Source: a virus (lineage: Duplodnaviria; Caudoviricetes). Taken from it: a DNA stretch of 50,965 nucleotides. The notes under the pieces were generated by a model that made no database searches, was not told the DNA's origin, and was given only the letters and a program-made list of their open reading frames with translations. The stretch lies in the IMG/VR virus record IMGVR_UViG_3300048598_000494, positions 1 to 50,965 of that record; one strand, written 5' to 3'. Positions 1 through 5,260 of the stretch are shown piece by piece. Each line of letters begins with the position of its first letter. Positions within the stretch are counted from its first letter, which is position 1. A program made the position numbers and the translations under genes.

Positions 1-1728
1 GTGGCGGCGGATCTCGACGTCGCCCACCTCGAGGCGATCGCCGTCGCGACCGAGGCGGACGACGCCGAGCCGCCGCCGCCGGCCGTCTTCGCCCGCGCCG
101 AGACGATCGTCGTTCCCGCCGCCGAGGGCGGACCGTCGGTGATGGTGATCGCGCCGAGCGCCGCCAAGCGCGCCGCCACGGCGGCCTTCCTCGCCGCCCA
201 CCCGGCCGAACGCGGCCGCATCGCCGTCGCCGCGCCGCGGGCGATCCGCCGGGCGCTGATCGAGCGCTGGGCCCCGGCGCTCGGCCGACGGGCGGTCCGC
301 ACGATGCTCGACCGCGAGCCCGTCGTGTCGGCGGCGCATCTGCCGAGCCTCGGCCGACCGCTCCTTGCCGTCATCGCCCTCCTCGTCGTCGCGGTGACGG
401 TCATCGGATCGCCCGGACCGATCCTCGCGACCTGGACCTTCGTGTTCCTGATCATCGGCCTCTTCCGCCTGCTGGTCGCCGAGACCGGCCAGCCGCCGCC
501 GCCACCGCCGCTCGCCGAGGGCGATCTGCCGCGTTTCGCCGTGCTGGTGCCGGTCCATCGCGAGGAGGCGGTCGTCGACGATCTGGTCACCGCCCTGTCG
601 CGGCTCGACTATCCCGCCGACCGGCTCGATCTGCGGCTGGTGGTGGAGGCCGACGACCTCGCCACCCGCGCCGCCGCCGAGCGCGCCACGGCCGACACCG
701 CGATCGAGACGGTGATCGTGCCGCCGTCGCGGCCGCGCACCAAGCCGAAGGCGCTCGACTTCGCGCTGGCGACCGTCGATGCCGACTTCGTCACCGTCTA
801 CGACGCCGAGGACCGCCCCGACCCGGATCAGCTGCGCCGCGCCGCCGCCGCCTTCGCCTGCGGACCCGCCGATCTCGCCGTGGTCCAGGCGGCGCTGGAG
901 ATCGACCACGCCGCCGATGCCCGCCCGTGGTTGGTGCGCCAGTTCGAGATCGAATACGCCATGCTCTTCCACGGCCTGCTGCCGTGGCTCGCCGAACGTC
1001 GGCTGTTCCTGCCGCTCGGCGGCACGTCGAACCACTTCCGCCGCGACGCGCTGCTGTCGGTCGGCGGCTGGGATCCGCACAACGTCACCGAGGACGCCGA
1101 CGTCGGCGTGCGTCTGGTGCGCGCCGGCTGGCACGCCGGCGTCGTCGCCTCGGTCACCCGCGAGGAGGCGCCGACCGGCCTCGGCGCCTGGTTCGCCCAG
1201 CGCACCCGCTGGATGAAGGGGTGGATGCAGACCTGGTTCACCCACATGGGCCGGCCGCGACGGTTCCACGGCGATCTCGCCCCGCGCGACGCGGTGGCCG
1301 TCCACATCGTGCTGGCCGGCCAGGTCCTGTCGGCGGCGACCTTCCTGCCGAGCCTGATCCTGATGGCGCTGCAGCTCGCCGGCGTGCTGCCGCTCTTCAA
1401 CGATTCCGGGATCGAGGCCGACGTCCTGTCGCTGGCCGCGCTCGCCGCCTTCGCCACCGGCCTCGTCGGCGCGCTGATTCTGGCGCTGACGGTCGCGCCG
1501 CGCGTCGGCCGGCGCTTCCGCCTCGGCGATCTGGCGACCATGCCGCTCTACTGGTGCGCGATCTCGCTCGCCACCTACGCCGCGATCGTCGAACTGCTGC
1601 GCGCGCCGGCGCACTGGAACAAGACGCCGCACGGCCTCGCGGCCCGCCTCGCCGAAGACGCCGCGGCGACGACGTCGCAGCCGACGACCACCCGCGAGGG
1701 CTTGCACGGAGCCCCCGCCGAAGGGTAA
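1..1728 (+). CDS. Host membrane glycosyltransferase, family 2 (may extend upstream of the window)
   Basis: GT2 motifs KPKALD, YDAED, TED, QRTRW and flanking TM segments; begins at the window edge. Confidence 0.9.
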   Translation: MAADLDVAHLEAIAVATEADDAEPPPPAVFARAETIVVPAAEGGPSVMVIAPSAAKRAATAAFLAAHPAERGRIAVAAPRAIRRALIERWAPALGRRAVRTMLDREPVVSAAHLPSLGRPLLAVIALLVVAVTVIGSPGPILATWTFVFLIIGLFRLLVAETGQPPPPPPLAEGDLPRFAVLVPVHREEAVVDDLVTALSRLDYPADRLDLRLVVEADDLATRAAAERATADTAIETVIVPPSRPRTKPKALDFALATVDADFVTVYDAEDRPDPDQLRRAAAAFACGPADLAVVQAALEIDHAADARPWLVRQFEIEYAMLFHGLLPWLAERRLFLPLGGTSNHFRRDALLSVGGWDPHNVTEDADVGVRLVRAGWHAGVVASVTREEAPTGLGAWFAQRTRWMKGWMQTWFTHMGRPRRFHGDLAPRDAVAVHIVLAGQVLSAATFLPSLILMALQLAGVLPLFNDSGIEADVLSLAALAAFATGLVGALILALTVAPRVGRRFRLGDLATMPLYWCAISLATYAAIVELLRAPAHWNKTPHGLAARLAEDAAATTSQPTTTREGLHGAPAEG

Positions 1729-1731
1729 GAG
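1702..1731 (+). promoter_or_regulatory. Putative host tRNA promoter
   Basis: TTGCAC (1702-1707), 18 nt, TAAGAG (1726-1731), just upstream of the tRNA 5' fragment. Confidence 0.5.
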
Positions 1732-1743
1732 AGGTTGCTTCGA

Positions 1744-1765
1744 GCGGGTGTAGTTCAGAGGTAGA
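1744..1765 (+). tRNA. 5' fragment of tRNA-Gly; probable att core (left junction), not an intact tRNA
   Basis: GCGGGTGTAGTTCAGAGGTAGA matches a tRNA-Gly acceptor 5' strand and D arm, then breaks into AT-rich sequence. Confidence 0.75.
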
Positions 1766-1860
1766 TTTTAATTGTTTTTTATTTTCAATTTCTTGGACAA
1801 TGACGCTTTGTTTTTGAAGAGCATTGTTTGACAATGCTTTTTTGCAGACATTGTCCCACC
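1766..1860. repeat. att arm: CATTGTY/GACAATG repeats, IHF-like site and TTGTCCCAC motif
   Basis: Four CATTGT-type copies (~1796, 1822, 1830, 1849); TTTCAAtttcTTG at 1783-1795; GTCCCAC recurs at 50918 and inverted at 50946. Confidence 0.55.
1820..1843 (+). terminator. Possible intrinsic terminator within the att arm
   Basis: AGCATTGT-TTG-ACAATGCT hairpin followed by a T run. Confidence 0.4.
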
Positions 1861-1871
1861 CCGAAAGTCGG

Positions 1872-2723
1872 CTAACCGAACAGACCGGGCGCTCGCGGAT
1901 GACGCGGCATCCCCCGCGGCGTGATCACCAACTCGCCGACGTCCTTCGGGGCGCCGGCGCCGATCGTGTACGTGAGAGAGACGGGCGCCTGGTCGAACGC
2001 CGCGAAGATCTCGCGCACCTCCAGCGTGTCGTTGATCGACAGCACGAAACGCCCGGCGATCCCGGCGAGCGCGTCGGCCAACCGCCGGAAGTCTGAACGG
2101 TCGAAGGTGCCGGCGCCATAGTCGCCCTCGCAGCCCCAGTAGGGCGGGTCGAGATAGAACAACGCGTCGGGTCCGTCGTATCGCGCGATGAAGGCGTCGT
2201 AGCCGAGGTTTTCGATGATGACGCCGGACAGGCGCTCGTTGATCGCCTCGAGCATCGGCCCGAGCTTGCCCACGTCGAAGCGGCCGGGCATCCCGGGCGA
2301 AACGCCGAAGGAGCGGCCGGAGACCTTCCCGCCGAACGCCAGGCGCTGCAGGTAGAGGAAGCGGGCCGCCCGCTCGAGATCGGTCAACGTGGCCGGGTCG
2401 GTGGTGACGAGCCGATCGAAGTCGCGCCGGGTGGTGAACTGCCACTTCAGCATGTCCATGAACGGCACGTAGTGGCGCTGCAGGATGCGAAAGAGGGTCG
2501 TCACGCAGCCGGAGCGGTCGTTGATCACTTCCGCCTGTGGGGCCCGGCGGCGGCGGAAGAAGACGCCGCCCATGCCGACGAAGGGCTCGGCATAGGTGGC
2601 GTGGGGGATCTCCTCGATCAGATCGACGAGCATCGGCGCCAACTGCTTCTTGCCGCCGATGTAGGCGGCGGGCGGAGAAATGGGCCGGACGGAGCGGTGG
2701 GTGAAGGTCTCCATTGAGAACAT
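1872..2723 (-). CDS. D12-class (Dam-like) N6-adenine DNA methyltransferase
   Basis: YIGGK, EPFVGMGGV, IND and DPPY motifs; start may be ATG at 2714. Confidence 0.93.
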   Translation of the reverse strand: MFSMETFTHRSVRPISPPAAYIGGKKQLAPMLVDLIEEIPHATYAEPFVGMGGVFFRRRRAPQAEVINDRSGCVTTLFRILQRHYVPFMDMLKWQFTTRRDFDRLVTTDPATLTDLERAARFLYLQRLAFGGKVSGRSFGVSPGMPGRFDVGKLGPMLEAINERLSGVIIENLGYDAFIARYDGPDALFYLDPPYWGCEGDYGAGTFDRSDFRRLADALAGIAGRFVLSINDTLEVREIFAAFDQAPVSLTYTIGAGAPKDVGELVITPRGMPRHPRAPGLFG

Positions 2724-2732
2724 CTCGCGAAC
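2718..2732. promoter_or_regulatory. Alphaproteobacterial LexA (SOS) box
   Basis: GAAC-ATCTCGC-GAAC is an exact GAAC-N7-GAAC; overlaps the methylase start and a TTGAGA-N17-TACCCG plus-strand promoter candidate. Confidence 0.65.
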
Positions 2733-2762
2733 ATGCTACCCGGCGAAGCGCGCTCGAGCGCA

Positions 2763-2853
2763 CGGCGGGAGACTTCGCATGCCGGGTCTCGCAGGGTCGT
2801 CTTGGCGGATGGACCTGCGGCGGAAGGCGCTGATGCGCCATGACGCCCCGCCG
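2763..2853. ncRNA. Candidate structured RNA, perfect four-way junction (strand uncertain)
   Basis: P1 2763-2768/2848-2853, P2 2769-2790, P3 2791-2818, P4 2819-2847, with no unpaired junction bases. Confidence 0.55.
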
Positions 2854-2875
2854 GCTCGGTCGACGGGGTCTACGG

Positions 2876-3133
2876 TCAGGGGTGGCCGCCCCCCTTGAGC
2901 GAGGCCCAGACGGCACCGGCGATGCCTGCCACGATGATCGTAACGAGGGCGATGAAGCTCTTGCGCTTGATTTCCTCGGTTGACTCTCGCCACGACCGCA
3001 GATGGGCGAAGTCCTTCTGCATGATGATCGGGTCTTCGACCTCGACGCCGATCGAAGTCAGGGTCGCCCGGACGGTCTCGGCGATCAGCTCGCGAAGTTG
3101 CGCCTCGGTGAGATTCATGGACTGCTCGCTCAT
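2876..3133 (-). CDS. Small phage membrane protein (lysis-cassette associated)
   Basis: 85 aa, C-terminal TM helix, follows the spanins. Confidence 0.7.
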   Translation of the reverse strand: MSEQSMNLTEAQLRELIAETVRATLTSIGVEVEDPIIMQKDFAHLRSWRESTEEIKRKSFIALVTIIVAGIAGAVWASLKGGGHP

Positions 3134-3226
3134 AATGGCCTCGCGTCGTCGAAGTCGATCTGTGGATCAGGCGGCCGGTATCGCGCGCCGAACCGGGCCG
3201 CTCGGGCCGGCGCTTGGGAGATCATG

Positions 3227-3448
3227 ATGTCCGGCAAACAAGAGCCTCGGCGCCTGCCTGCGCCCTGGCGCGTCGAAGAGATCGCCGCGGCCTATCTGGT
3301 GGTCGACGCCATGGGACGCCGGATCGCGCACGTCTATTTCGAAGACGAGAAGAGCCGACGCGATATCGCGAACCTCCTCACGAAGGACGAGGCCAGGAGG
3401 GTCGCGCGGGCCATTGCTCGCCTGCCGGAGATCCTGCCGAAGGCGTGA
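3227..3448 (+). CDS. Small hypothetical protein, moron-like, opposite to the late operon
   Basis: GGGAG RBS; PWRVEE...VYFEDE...LLTKDEARRVA resembles a small conserved rhizobial protein. Confidence 0.7.
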   Translation: MSGKQEPRRLPAPWRVEEIAAAYLVVDAMGRRIAHVYFEDEKSRRDIANLLTKDEARRVARAIARLPEILPKA

Positions 3449-3487
3449 TCACTGTCGCCTCCCGATCGCGGCGCGCGGGCGGTTTCG

Positions 3488-3787
3488 TCAGGGGATCGTG
3501 GCGCCTCCGCGAAGTCTCCCGTCGCGGTCGATGTAGAAGCGCACCAGCGCTTCGTGTCGGACGCGGCACACCCGGGCGGCCGTGTAGGCCGCCGCCAGCG
3601 CCTTGACGACGTCGGCCTTGCGACCGCTCGCGAGTGGCGCGGGCGCAGGGACAGGCGACGTCAGTTCCACCGGAGGCGGGTCGGCGCGGACGCCGGCGCC
3701 GATCGGGTCAACGCTGCTTGTTGATCTCGCGCACGCTGCCAGCGTCGAGGCAGTCGCGATCACGATCAGGGTCGACATCAGCCGCAT
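3488..3787 (-). CDS. Outer-membrane spanin lipoprotein (Rz1-like)
   Basis: Lipobox LAAC, Pro-rich, overlaps the 3' end of the Rz-like gene. Confidence 0.75.
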   Translation of the reverse strand: MRLMSTLIVIATASTLAACARSTSSVDPIGAGVRADPPPVELTSPVPAPAPLASGRKADVVKALAAAYTAARVCRVRHEALVRFYIDRDGRLRGGATIP

Positions 3788-4124
3788 GGGTCAGGTCCTC
3801 GAGGGCTTGGGCGAGATCGTCGCGCTCGCGGCGGAGCGCGACGGCGGCTCGTTCGGAGGCGGCGACCGCCTCGGCGTTGGCGCGCGCCTGGCGCTGGCGC
3901 TCCTCGTCGGCGGCGGCCCGCCAAACCTCGCGCTCGGTGGCCTTGCCTTCGCGAACGCCGGCCTCGTGGGCGGCCTCGACGCGCTCGGCGGCATCCCACG
4001 TCGCGGAAACGGCGTGGAAGCCGCAGGCGGCCACGAGAACGACGACGAGCGCCGCCCATCCGACGAGGCGAGCGGCTGCGTCGTCCAATCCGGTCAGCCT
4101 GGCGATGATCGCGATCGGGTTCAT
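3708..4124 (-). CDS. Inner-membrane spanin (Rz-like)
   Basis: N-terminal TM, coiled coil, C-terminal Cys. Confidence 0.75.
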   Translation of the reverse strand: MNPIAIIARLTGLDDAAARLVGWAALVVVLVAACGFHAVSATWDAAERVEAAHEAGVREGKATEREVWRAAADEERQRQARANAEAVAASERAAVALRRERDDLAQALEDLTHAADVDPDRDRDCLDAGSVREINKQR

Positions 4125-4420
4125 TGCTCGCCCCCCGGGTCGCGCCGAACAGGGGCGTCGTCATAGGACGGCGCCGGCGGGCGATCGAAGCGCGGCGGAT
4201 CGTCGAACCGGCCATGCTTCATGCGGTTGAGGTCGTCCCACGCGGCGCCGCCGATGTAGGAACCGACCGTCATCCCGGCGAGAAGCGAGAGCGCCGAGAC
4301 GATGTCGCGCGCGAGCGCCGTATCGGCGCCGAACATCGTCAGATACCCGACCGCCCAAGCACAGAACCCGAGCGTGCCGAACACCGCCCAACGGCGCCAG
4401 AACCATGAGGTCTCGACCAT
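4121..4420 (-). CDS. Holin-like protein
   Basis: 99 aa, two TM helices, charged tail, directly after the endolysin. Confidence 0.7.
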   Translation of the reverse strand: MVETSWFWRRWAVFGTLGFCAWAVGYLTMFGADTALARDIVSALSLLAGMTVGSYIGGAAWDDLNRMKHGRFDDPPRFDRPPAPSYDDAPVRRDPGGEQ

Positions 4421-4423
4421 GGG

Positions 4424-5260
4424 TCAGCCCCTTTCCGCGAGCGCGGCCTCGATCGCCGCCCACGTCTTCGGCCCCGGGTCGCCGTCGGCGACGAGACCGT
4501 GATCGCCCTGGAAGCGGATCACCGCCGCGCGGGTGCGCGGGCCGGCGACGCCGTCGGCCGTGAGCGGGCCGTAACCGAGATCGGTCAACGCGCGCTGCAG
4601 CTCGACCACCGAGCGGCCCGGCGGCGGATCGGCCGGACGCGGCGGCGCGGACGCCGGGGCCGATCCGCCGAGAACCGCCACCCGGAACGCCGGGAGGTCG
4701 AAGGCCGGGCCGGGGTCGACCTTGCGCGCCGGCGCGATGTCCTCGTGTCCGCAGACGTCCTCGAACCCGTAGGCCGCCTCGAGCGCGCGGGCGACCGCGA
4801 GGGCGGTCTCGATCTGGCGCGCCGGGTACGTGTGCCAGCCGCGGCGCCCGCCGCCGTGCTTGTGCTCGGCGACGAGAACACGATCGTCGGGGACGGGCCG
4901 TCCGGCGAAGGTCCACCGCCCCGGCGCGCCGTCGAGCTCGCCGTAGTTCGCCATCTCGATCCCGATCGAGTTGCTGTTCATGGCCGTGCAGCCGTGCCAC
5001 TCGCTCTTCCCGGCGTGCCAGGTCGCCCGGTCGAACGGCGCAAGCTGCACGACATCGCCGGCTTCGGAGATCACGAGGTGCGCCGACGCCTTGGCCTCGG
5101 GGTTGCAGAGCCATTCGACCGCGCCGTTGAAGCCGCCGGACGTGAAGTGCATCACGAGGAAGCGAGGATTGCACTCGCCGCCGAGGTTCGGGGTCGGACG
5201 GAACGGCACGCGGACGCCATCGGCGAGCAAGCGCCCGCCGGAAACAGAGTAGGTGATCAT
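4424..5260 (-). CDS. Endolysin: Amidase_2 N-acetylmuramoyl-L-alanine amidase with C-terminal peptidoglycan-binding domain
   Basis: VMHFT, SAH, WHAG, SIGIE, GHEDI..RKVDPG; LQRAL..LGY..DG..GP.T repeat. Confidence 0.93.
   Translation of the reverse strand: MITYSVSGGRLLADGVRVPFRPTPNLGGECNPRFLVMHFTSGGFNGAVEWLCNPEAKASAHLVISEAGDVVQLAPFDRATWHAGKSEWHGCTAMNSNSIGIEMANYGELDGAPGRWTFAGRPVPDDRVLVAEHKHGGGRRGWHTYPARQIETALAVARALEAAYGFEDVCGHEDIAPARKVDPGPAFDLPAFRVAVLGGSAPASAPPRPADPPPGRSVVELQRALTDLGYGPLTADGVAGPRTRAAVIRFQGDHGLVADGDPGPKTWAAIEAALAERG

Follow-up and report, generated by a model that had tools for sequence, protein, structure and literature searches.

Phages use DNA methylases to overcome host restriction, and these enzymes can also be toxic or reprogram the epigenetic control of the host; the alphaproteobacterial cell cycle is driven by GANTC methylation. 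To our knowledge, little is known about how phage DNA methylases are timed outside mom of phage Mu, and we know of no conserved four-way-junction RNA in the Mu mom scheme. Small cloverleaf-like regulatory RNAs are familiar from other phages, in that C4 of P1 and P7 and CI of P4 lie just upstream of the genes they control. In Mu, the divergent promoter momP2 overlaps the mom control region (momP1/momP2), according to the available text of PMC3378877. Here, we analyze an IMG/VR provirus record (IMGVR_UViG_3300048598_000494; 50,965 bp, about 70% G+C; hereafter, the window), in which a gap upstream of a D12-class N6-adenine DNA methyltransferase gene (1872 to 2714, minus strand) contains a predicted four-way-junction RNA with a core of 92 nucleotides (nt; 2763 to 2854, plus strand). 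On comparative evidence, this core is a member of an RNA family of about 95 nt that is absent from Rfam and stands before methylase genes in alphaproteobacterial prophages and phages.

An earlier note on this DNA, made from its letters alone, had described a perfect four-way junction in the gap, and we find every helix where it was drawn, with no unpaired bases at the junction. On the plus strand, the closing helix P1 (CGGCGG 2763-2768 / CCGCCG 2848-2853) encloses three arms, namely GAGAC 2769-2773 / GTCTC 2786-2790, which extends to a full arm of 2769-2775 / 2784-2790, GCAGG 2791-2795 / CCTGC 2814-2818, and GGCG 2819-2822 / CGCC 2844-2847, the last with an inner hairpin at 2825-2830 / 2835-2841. 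The junction itself is the minimum free energy structure of the plus-strand core, at -53.2 kcal/mol (z -3.25), and none of 200 shuffles folds as well; on the minus strand the core forms the mirror junction at -43.0 kcal/mol (z -2.40, with 4 of 200 shuffles as good). The note's caution that high G+C content favors chance hairpins applies to the whole 167-nt gap at 2714-2880, whose folding is not superior to that of dinucleotide shuffles (minus strand, z -0.38; plus strand, z -0.72), but not to the 92-nt core, which folds better than its shuffled counterparts. Both of the competing hairpins that had been claimed are also present. One pairs ACCCGGC (2738-2744) with GCCGGGT (2781-2787), and the other, P0 (2846-2868, plus strand; CCCCG 2846-2850 / CGGGG 2864-2868), overlaps bases of P1 and of the last arm and could form the 3' end or terminator of a plus-strand RNA. 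A hairpin overlapping P1 occurs in 59 of 86 family members, against a fraction of 0.49 in shuffles, an enrichment too weak to build on, and we rejected competition with P1 as a family feature. A further hairpin, P5 (2750-2761, plus strand), is formed by the palindrome GCGCTCGAGCGC. It was found de novo by RNAalifold on both strands, and two of its pairs have compensatory changes, with G·U pairs on the plus strand where the minus strand has A·C mismatches.

The evidence that this fold is conserved comes from relatives of the locus. Homologues of the methylase were collected from alphaproteobacterial prophages at 63 IMG/VR, 70 genome, and 80 metagenome loci, the genome loci including Sphingomonas, Brevundimonas, Bradyrhizobium, Rhodobacter, and Paracoccus. 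In blastn, the window gap had no match among the gaps of 58 IMG/VR homologues. Many of these first 58 gaps share a multi-hairpin element with obvious compensatory changes, and only closer metagenome relatives bridged the window to the rest of the RNA family. The ten sequences that we refer to as the W group are the window, L139 (96% protein identity), and L140-L145, L148, and L149 (63-75%), and their gaps align with that of the window. A MAFFT alignment of the W group, made blind to structure, has 89.5% of cells paired, and sliding the 3' partners by 1-3 columns lowers this to 38-50%. Both sides have changed at eight pairs (0-2 in the slid controls), with a covariation score of 0.232 (at most 0.08 in the controls). 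The nine relatives retain all four helices by compensatory changes, and the arms are swapped as whole helices, GAGAC/GTCTC being replaced by AGCCT/AGGCT or TCGC/GCGA, and GCAGG/CCTGC by GCGGG/CCCGC. From the W-group sequences alone, RNAalifold returns the same junction and 5' hairpin de novo.

A model built from these ten sequences (R1) has full-length matches in other gap classes, all on the methylase strand and just upstream of the gene. Across 67 distinct sequences, 88.8% of cells are paired, against 39-49% in slid controls, 23 of 26 pairs have changed on both sides, and the covariation score reaches 0.437, against at most 0.085. The loop of one arm is strictly conserved, most members having GUUGGCG or GUUAGCG there on the RNA strand, and such strict conservation of both the perfect junction and the arm loop may hint at a bound partner. 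Covariation, which the earlier note had named as a check on its proposal, is thus strong relative to slid controls in both the W group and the larger set, and these comparisons show a methylase-associated family whose predicted RNA fold is conserved by compensatory change.

The association with methylase genes was examined with a second model, R2, whose 64 seed sequences exclude the window and its near-twin L139 but include W-group relatives that are 67-70% identical to the window. R2 matches the window at 2763-2854 on the minus strand (55.4 bits, E 4.5e-7), the only hit in the 50,965 bp at E of at most 10. Among homologue loci, it matches 49 of 100 and another 49 of 100, which amounts to 86 of 157 distinct loci, the latter being those with at least 150 nt upstream. 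Relative to the methylase, the element is invariably in one orientation, and its median distance from the methylase start is 43 nt, with 75 of the 86 at 80 nt or less; the window has 48 nt between its core and the ATG at 2714. All ten members with a distance above 150 nt encode an intervening CxxC...CxxC peptide, and a Com gene follows the element in 10 of the 86.

Searching for the RNA first leads to the same genes. In a sample of 151 genomes of one order, seven have R2 matches under strict filters; the sample gave 11 hits, of which one was previously known, two lie on 254-nt contigs, and eight could be examined. A methylase follows in all eight, a D12 enzyme in six and Com plus a C5 methylase in two. 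Genome G004 carries a second copy of the element, just after Mu-type transposase A and B genes, and then a Com zinc-ribbon gene (PF10122, E 1.8e-11) and a C5 methylase gene (PF00145, E 4.3e-30). Among the whole-genome hits, an element before Com (PF10122) and a C5 methylase (PF00145) is found at L222:1618-2710, L226:384-1491, and L227:1607-2720, and in L222 the genes for Mu transposase A and B immediately precede it. On its far side, the element has varying neighbours, namely lysis genes in the window, Mu B in G004, and, in phage StopSmel, a tail fibre gene. StopSmel, an isolated Sinorhizobium phage, carries the element at 36.6 bits (E 1.2e-4), and phi2LM21 has no R2 match at E of at most 1. 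Three gammaproteobacterial phages, Lodos (Pseudomonas, L233), PseuP_222 (L234), and phiHAP-1 (Halomonas, L235), have lysis or tail genes, a gap of 120-145 nt, and a Dam-like methylase. The top R2 hits in these phages are weak, at 13.4 bits or less, and fall inside the matching gap in two of the three (phiHAP-1, 13.4 bits; Lodos, 9.2 bits); they do not establish homology between these gaps and the alphaproteobacterial family. Within that family, the sequence comparisons show that the element is closely tied to methylase genes, which belong to two unrelated families, the partners being D12 adenine methylases or Com together with a C5 or D12 methylase.

None of the RNA families catalogued in Rfam 15 accounts for the element. 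No relevant family was found in the window at the gathering score or in 2500-3100 at E of at most 10. Among homologue loci, 20 searched at the gathering score gave only two downstream tRNAs (L011 and L012), and 15 searched at E of at most 1 gave nothing relevant. Riboswitch models had no match in the window, the gap, or the homologue loci searched. Searches with Infernal for C4 and D12-methyl, which the earlier note had suggested, matched neither to the window gap: D12-methyl (RF02950) is absent from the window at E of at most 10 and from the 15 homologue loci at E of at most 1, and C4 from the window at the gathering score, from 2500-3100 at E of at most 10, and from the same 15 loci at E of at most 1. 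The parallel that had been drawn with the cloverleaf RNAs P1 C4 and P4 CI consequently stands as a likeness of shape and not as membership of Rfam C4. ARAGORN detected no tRNA or tmRNA in 1100-4500 of the window or in the gaps of 16 homologue loci. Our literature searches, in sources available in part, found no published description of such a methylase-associated RNA, and we claim no wider absence.

Several properties of the alignment point to the strand that encodes the RNA. On the methylase strand, the helices of 87 aligned members contain 184 A·C or C·A cells and 26 G·U cells, or 136 and 21 after thinning to less than 80% identity. The observed ratio is 7:1, while base composition predicts an A·C:G·U ratio of 1.67:1 and far more mismatches of other kinds than are seen, and the A·C excess is found in every helix. 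Since A·C cells become G·U on the opposite strand, 94.4% of cells pair there, against 87.0%. Of the 67 sequences, 62 have a more stable consensus structure on the opposite strand, and for the W group RNAalifold gives 30 pairs at -46.7 kcal/mol on the plus strand against 20 pairs at -26.3 kcal/mol on the minus strand. On the opposite strand, 9 of 84 members have a hairpin-plus-T-run terminator immediately beyond the element, compared with 1 of 84 on the methylase strand, and promoter-like scores of at least 9 number 13 of 84 and 3 of 84, respectively. We consider it quite probable, from this asymmetry, that the RNA is read from the plus strand of the window, away from the methylase. The earlier note had offered either an antisense small RNA or a switchable mRNA leader; the G·U and A·C counts and RNAalifold favor its antisense alternative and disfavor the leader.

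A candidate promoter for a plus-strand RNA is located at 2714-2742, with a -35 element, TTGAGA(A) (2714-2720), that overlaps the methylase start codon, and a -10 region, GCTACCCG (2735-2742); P5 lies between this promoter and the junction. The best-conserved stretch of the W group outside the helices reads CATTGAGAAC-AT..C..GAACA.GCTA.... on the plus strand. TTGAGA is invariant in eight of the ten sequences, the other two having TTGAGG and TTGTGT, and GCTA occurs 14 nt beyond TTGAGAA in eight of ten. The Caulobacter RpoD pattern is given as TTGaCgS / GCtANAWC with a spacing of 10-19 nt in the available text of PMC8144410, and the candidate fits this pattern with its 14-nt gap. The promoter elements proposed in the earlier note, TTGAGA (2714-2719) and TACCCG (2737-2742) separated by 17 nt, are present in the sequence, and the candidate promoter is conserved in eight of ten relatives. 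Transcription from it would start near 2749. Contigs from four wastewater runs, probably DNA, hold a methylase relative that is 90-95% alike over 2565-2742 of the window and diverges past about 2742, with zero cover of 2758-3127. As the match extends past the box described below and the promoter, the control stretch appears better kept than the remaining gap in that relative.

The spacer of this candidate promoter contains a direct repeat, GAACATCTCGCGAAC (2718-2732, plus strand), which reads GTTC-N7-GTTC on the methylase strand and exactly matches the alphaproteobacterial (Caulobacter) LexA motif, GTTCN7GTTC, as described in the available text of PMC12700426. Its match to the alphaproteobacterial LexA box, as well as its position on the methylase start and within the promoter candidate, bears out the earlier note. 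The window alone cannot be used to judge the box, because one match per 51 kb is chance level (1.85 expected; at least one in 80 of 100 shuffles). Its conservation is more informative. The exact box is found at the same place, within the promoter spacer, in eight of the ten W-group sequences, while L140 and L142 have lost it and kept the junction. More broadly, 29 of the 157 distinct loci have an exact box between -120 and +40 relative to the methylase start, about a 45-fold enrichment over the rest of the same loci (15 boxes in 604,626 nt, or 0.004 per 160 nt), and 26 of these 29 have GTTC on the coding strand. The conservation that the earlier note had asked about is thus seen both among close relatives and as an enrichment at methylase starts. 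In the W group, the box also covers a -10-like hexamer, (G/A)ATGTT, four bases before the ATG, which would suit a leaderless methylase mRNA; no conserved sense -35 accompanies it in this group. Given that the box occupies the spacer of the plus-strand promoter as well as the sense -10-like hexamer, one LexA dimer could in principle shut both directions.

Elsewhere in the family, the same interval is marked by a different motif. GANTC, the CcrM site, is enriched 10-fold between the element and the start codon, occurring in 59 of 86 loci at 0.0144 per nt compared with 0.0014. In loci within L005-L218, it is often CGATTC or GGAGTC right at the start codon. The window has no GANTC in 2700-2765 and has the LexA box instead, and the two look like alternative inputs to one control region.

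Taken together, the explanation that we hold with moderate confidence is that a plus-strand RNA behind a LexA-switched promoter gates the expression of a potentially harmful methylase. Judging from the motif and its conservation, LexA would hold the control region shut in the lysogen and release it upon DNA damage, and the plus-strand RNA would be made when LexA is cleaved. This RNA would be about 100-130 nt long, starting near 2749, opening with P5 (2750-2761), continuing through the junction, and ending near P0 (2846-2868). The analogy with Mu com-mom and momP2 suggests that the methylase may be gated by the divergent structured RNA or by the activity of the promoter that makes it, and the likelier modes would be competition between overlapping divergent promoters or pairing with read-through transcripts of the late operon. 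Simple antisense masking of the methylase start codon was rejected, as an RNA from about 2749 would not cover it.

Several observations weigh against this explanation. A start roughly 35 nt upstream of the ATG, with transcription heading away from the gene, excludes start-site masking. The plus-strand promoter was not called by a simple scan for E. coli-type sigma-70 promoters, its -10 being weak relative to the E. coli consensus. The window gap has no T run or T-rich terminator, and a terminator scan finds none in it. P0 taken alone reads better on the minus strand, because one of its pairs in the window is G·U there but C·A on the plus strand, and a second pair of this kind occurs in L139. 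The 67-sequence alignment leans towards structure because it was fitted to the model, a bias that the slid controls share. The alignment used to count A·C and G·U cells was also fitted to the model, and three pair positions of one subclade supply most of the A·C excess. A fixed orientation and a short distance to the start would equally suit a leader on the sense strand. Finally, boxes are found in 10 of the 86 loci with the element and in 19 of the 71 without it. In the latter, by our own reading, the box overlaps a canonical sense promoter, for example CTGACA-N17-TATGTT, and the box may therefore serve the methylase rather than the RNA. These element-free homologues look like plain LexA-repressed methylase genes. 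At L015, L028, L032, L035, L052, L059, and others, TGTTCAYGTTATGTTC lies over the sense promoter about 40 nt upstream of the methylase start, and in element-free loci the promoter is followed by a small hairpin and a ribosome-binding site.

Some of these points feed a possible, if on balance doubtful, alternative in which the LexA box controls the methylase itself, through a leaderless mRNA with a -10 at GATGTT (2719-2724) and a start at or near the ATG, an arrangement compatible with either RNA strand. ATGTTCTCAATG is invariant in eight of ten relatives and comes without a Shine-Dalgarno sequence, and the element-free homologues carry the same box in the same orientation over a sense promoter of the CTGACA-N17-TATGTT type. 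The W-group -35, however, is unconserved (TTCGCC, GTTTCG, CACCGA, and others), and the -35 of the plus-strand promoter accounts equally well for the invariant TTGAGA. A different proposal reads the element as a cis-acting leader of the methylase mRNA that would switch translation or termination, perhaps with Com or another factor bound to it, and takes the plus-strand promoter look-alike as a by-product of the LexA box and start codon. We regard it as unlikely. The constant orientation of the element and its median distance of 43 nt suit such a leader, as do the junction of the minus-strand core (z -2.40), the better reading of P0 on the minus strand, and the Com gene after the element in 10 of 86 members; by our reading, moreover, the sequence immediately preceding the box is complementary to the loop of one arm in the window and in L141 and L142. 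Against this stand the 184 A·C cells to 26 G·U on the methylase strand, spread over every helix, and the 20 pairs at -26.3 kcal/mol that RNAalifold assigns to that strand against 30 at -46.7 kcal/mol on the opposite one. In addition, the sense promoter upstream of the element is unconserved, with a score of at least 9 in only 3 of 84, and the -35 of the sense promoter at the box is unconserved in the W group.

The remaining alternatives dispense with a regulatory RNA of this kind or assign it another role. A role at the DNA level, for example in protein binding or in recombination that carries methylase cassettes from phage to phage, would account for the element's travelling with two unrelated methylase families and varied neighbours (lysis, tail fibre, Mu A/B). 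A DNA element, however, predicts no preference between G·T and A·C, as opposed to the 7:1 observed against 1.67:1 from composition, and covariation over several helices together with a conserved loop is typical of RNA; we judge it very improbable. Scarcely credible is a coincidence of chance hairpins in a spacer of 70% G+C with a chance GAAC-N7-GAAC. The 167-nt gap does fold like its shuffles, and one box per window is the chance level, but the z of -3.25 for the core, the covariation, the R2 match, and the conservation and enrichment of the box contradict it. More speculatively, the conserved shape and loop, with a hairpin competing with the closing helix, suggest that the junction might be a ligand- or protein-sensing RNA, riboswitch-like or tRNA-mimicking, which upon DNA damage (LexA) or a change in host methylation (GANTC) decides methylase expression across unrelated families as an ancient portable cassette. 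We would give this idea a small chance of being correct.

A minus-strand gene block spans about 32 kb down to 1.9 kb, and the D12 methylase (PF02086, E 2.4e-20; phrog_56, E 2.2e-75) is its final gene, in agreement with the terminal position given in the earlier note. The methylase probably starts at the ATG at 2714: this gives a 280-amino-acid (aa) form that is 100% identical to the called protein, the great majority of relatives are 278-284 aa with full cover and most are 280 aa, and ATGGAG opens the homologue genes. An in-frame ATG at 2723 is the start in a mechanical list of open reading frames; the relatives and the called protein favor 2714. With this start, the noncoding gap is 2715-2875. 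The available text of PMC5537653 reports that Phi2LM21_p66, the closest annotated phage homologue, gave no detectable protection in E. coli, and for that reason we leave the target sequence of this methylase clade unassigned. The far border of the gap is an 85-aa gene of the phrog_6420 family of unknown function (2876 to 3133, minus strand; G+C at third codon positions, GC3, 0.86; E 3.6e-31), and upstream of it are a spanin-like gene and an endolysin gene, which are lysis genes. Used as a search anchor, the 85-aa protein led to only two viral loci. Open frames that overlap the gap at 2680-2898 (plus), 2736-2993 (minus), and 1768-2916 (minus) were rejected as genes because they have no Pfam match and failed the GC3 filter. 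The last of these, a 382-aa frame that overlaps the methylase and the gap in another frame, is typical of spurious frames in high-G+C DNA.

At its other end, the methylase faces a convergent 575-aa open frame (1-1728 of the window, plus strand, GC3 0.94) beyond the presumed prophage end, with only weak PHROG matches, all of unknown function. In several homologue loci, the methylase is the last gene before a tRNA gene, which marks the prophage end. Such tRNA genes lie at L011:3451-3527 and L012:3504-3580, 160-220 nt beyond the methylase. A tRNA-Gly fragment had been noticed at 1702-1860 of the window, where ARAGORN finds no complete tRNA in 1100-4500.

If this reading is correct, an RNA that accompanies two unrelated methylase families across alphaproteobacterial prophages would be a new family for RNA catalogues, and it would offer a testable mechanism for the timing of phage DNA methylation, linked here to an SOS operator and elsewhere to clustered CcrM sites. 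The element would also mark methylase cassettes in metagenomes, and its perfect four-way junction would make it a good subject for structure probing.

Of the systems described to date, Mu com-mom is the nearest in logic. As in the window, its DNA-modification gene is last among the late genes and under layered control. The likeness extends to Com genes (PF10122), which separate element and methylase in 10 of 86 family members and in three whole-genome hits, and the clustering of GANTC at the methylase starts of the family is comparable to the Dam sites at Mu Pmom. Similar to the candidate plus-strand promoter of the window, momP2 faces away from its gene and overlaps the control region of that gene, as described in the available text of PMC3378877. 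In contrast to Mu, the window gap has no Com-like open reading frame or CxxC peptide in the 48 nt from core to ATG, the enzymes of the family are methyltransferases rather than Mom, and LexA would take the place of OxyR and C.

The element also shares features with described phage RNAs. P1/P7 C4 and P4 CI are of the same size class and shape and have the same position upstream of the target; they are cut from the same strand as the target and partner antirepressor genes, whereas the window element reads better on the opposite strand and partners methylases. The D12-methyl motif, RF02950, is likewise a structured RNA motif, named for its position before D12-class methylase genes, and differs in being a model of 64 positions with no match in the window. 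As for the box, the alphaproteobacterial SOS boxes described in the available text of PMC12700426 have the same exact direct repeat with 7-nt spacing and lie over promoter elements. The candidate box of the window differs in being placed in a prophage control region that would be shared by a methylase gene and a divergent structured RNA.

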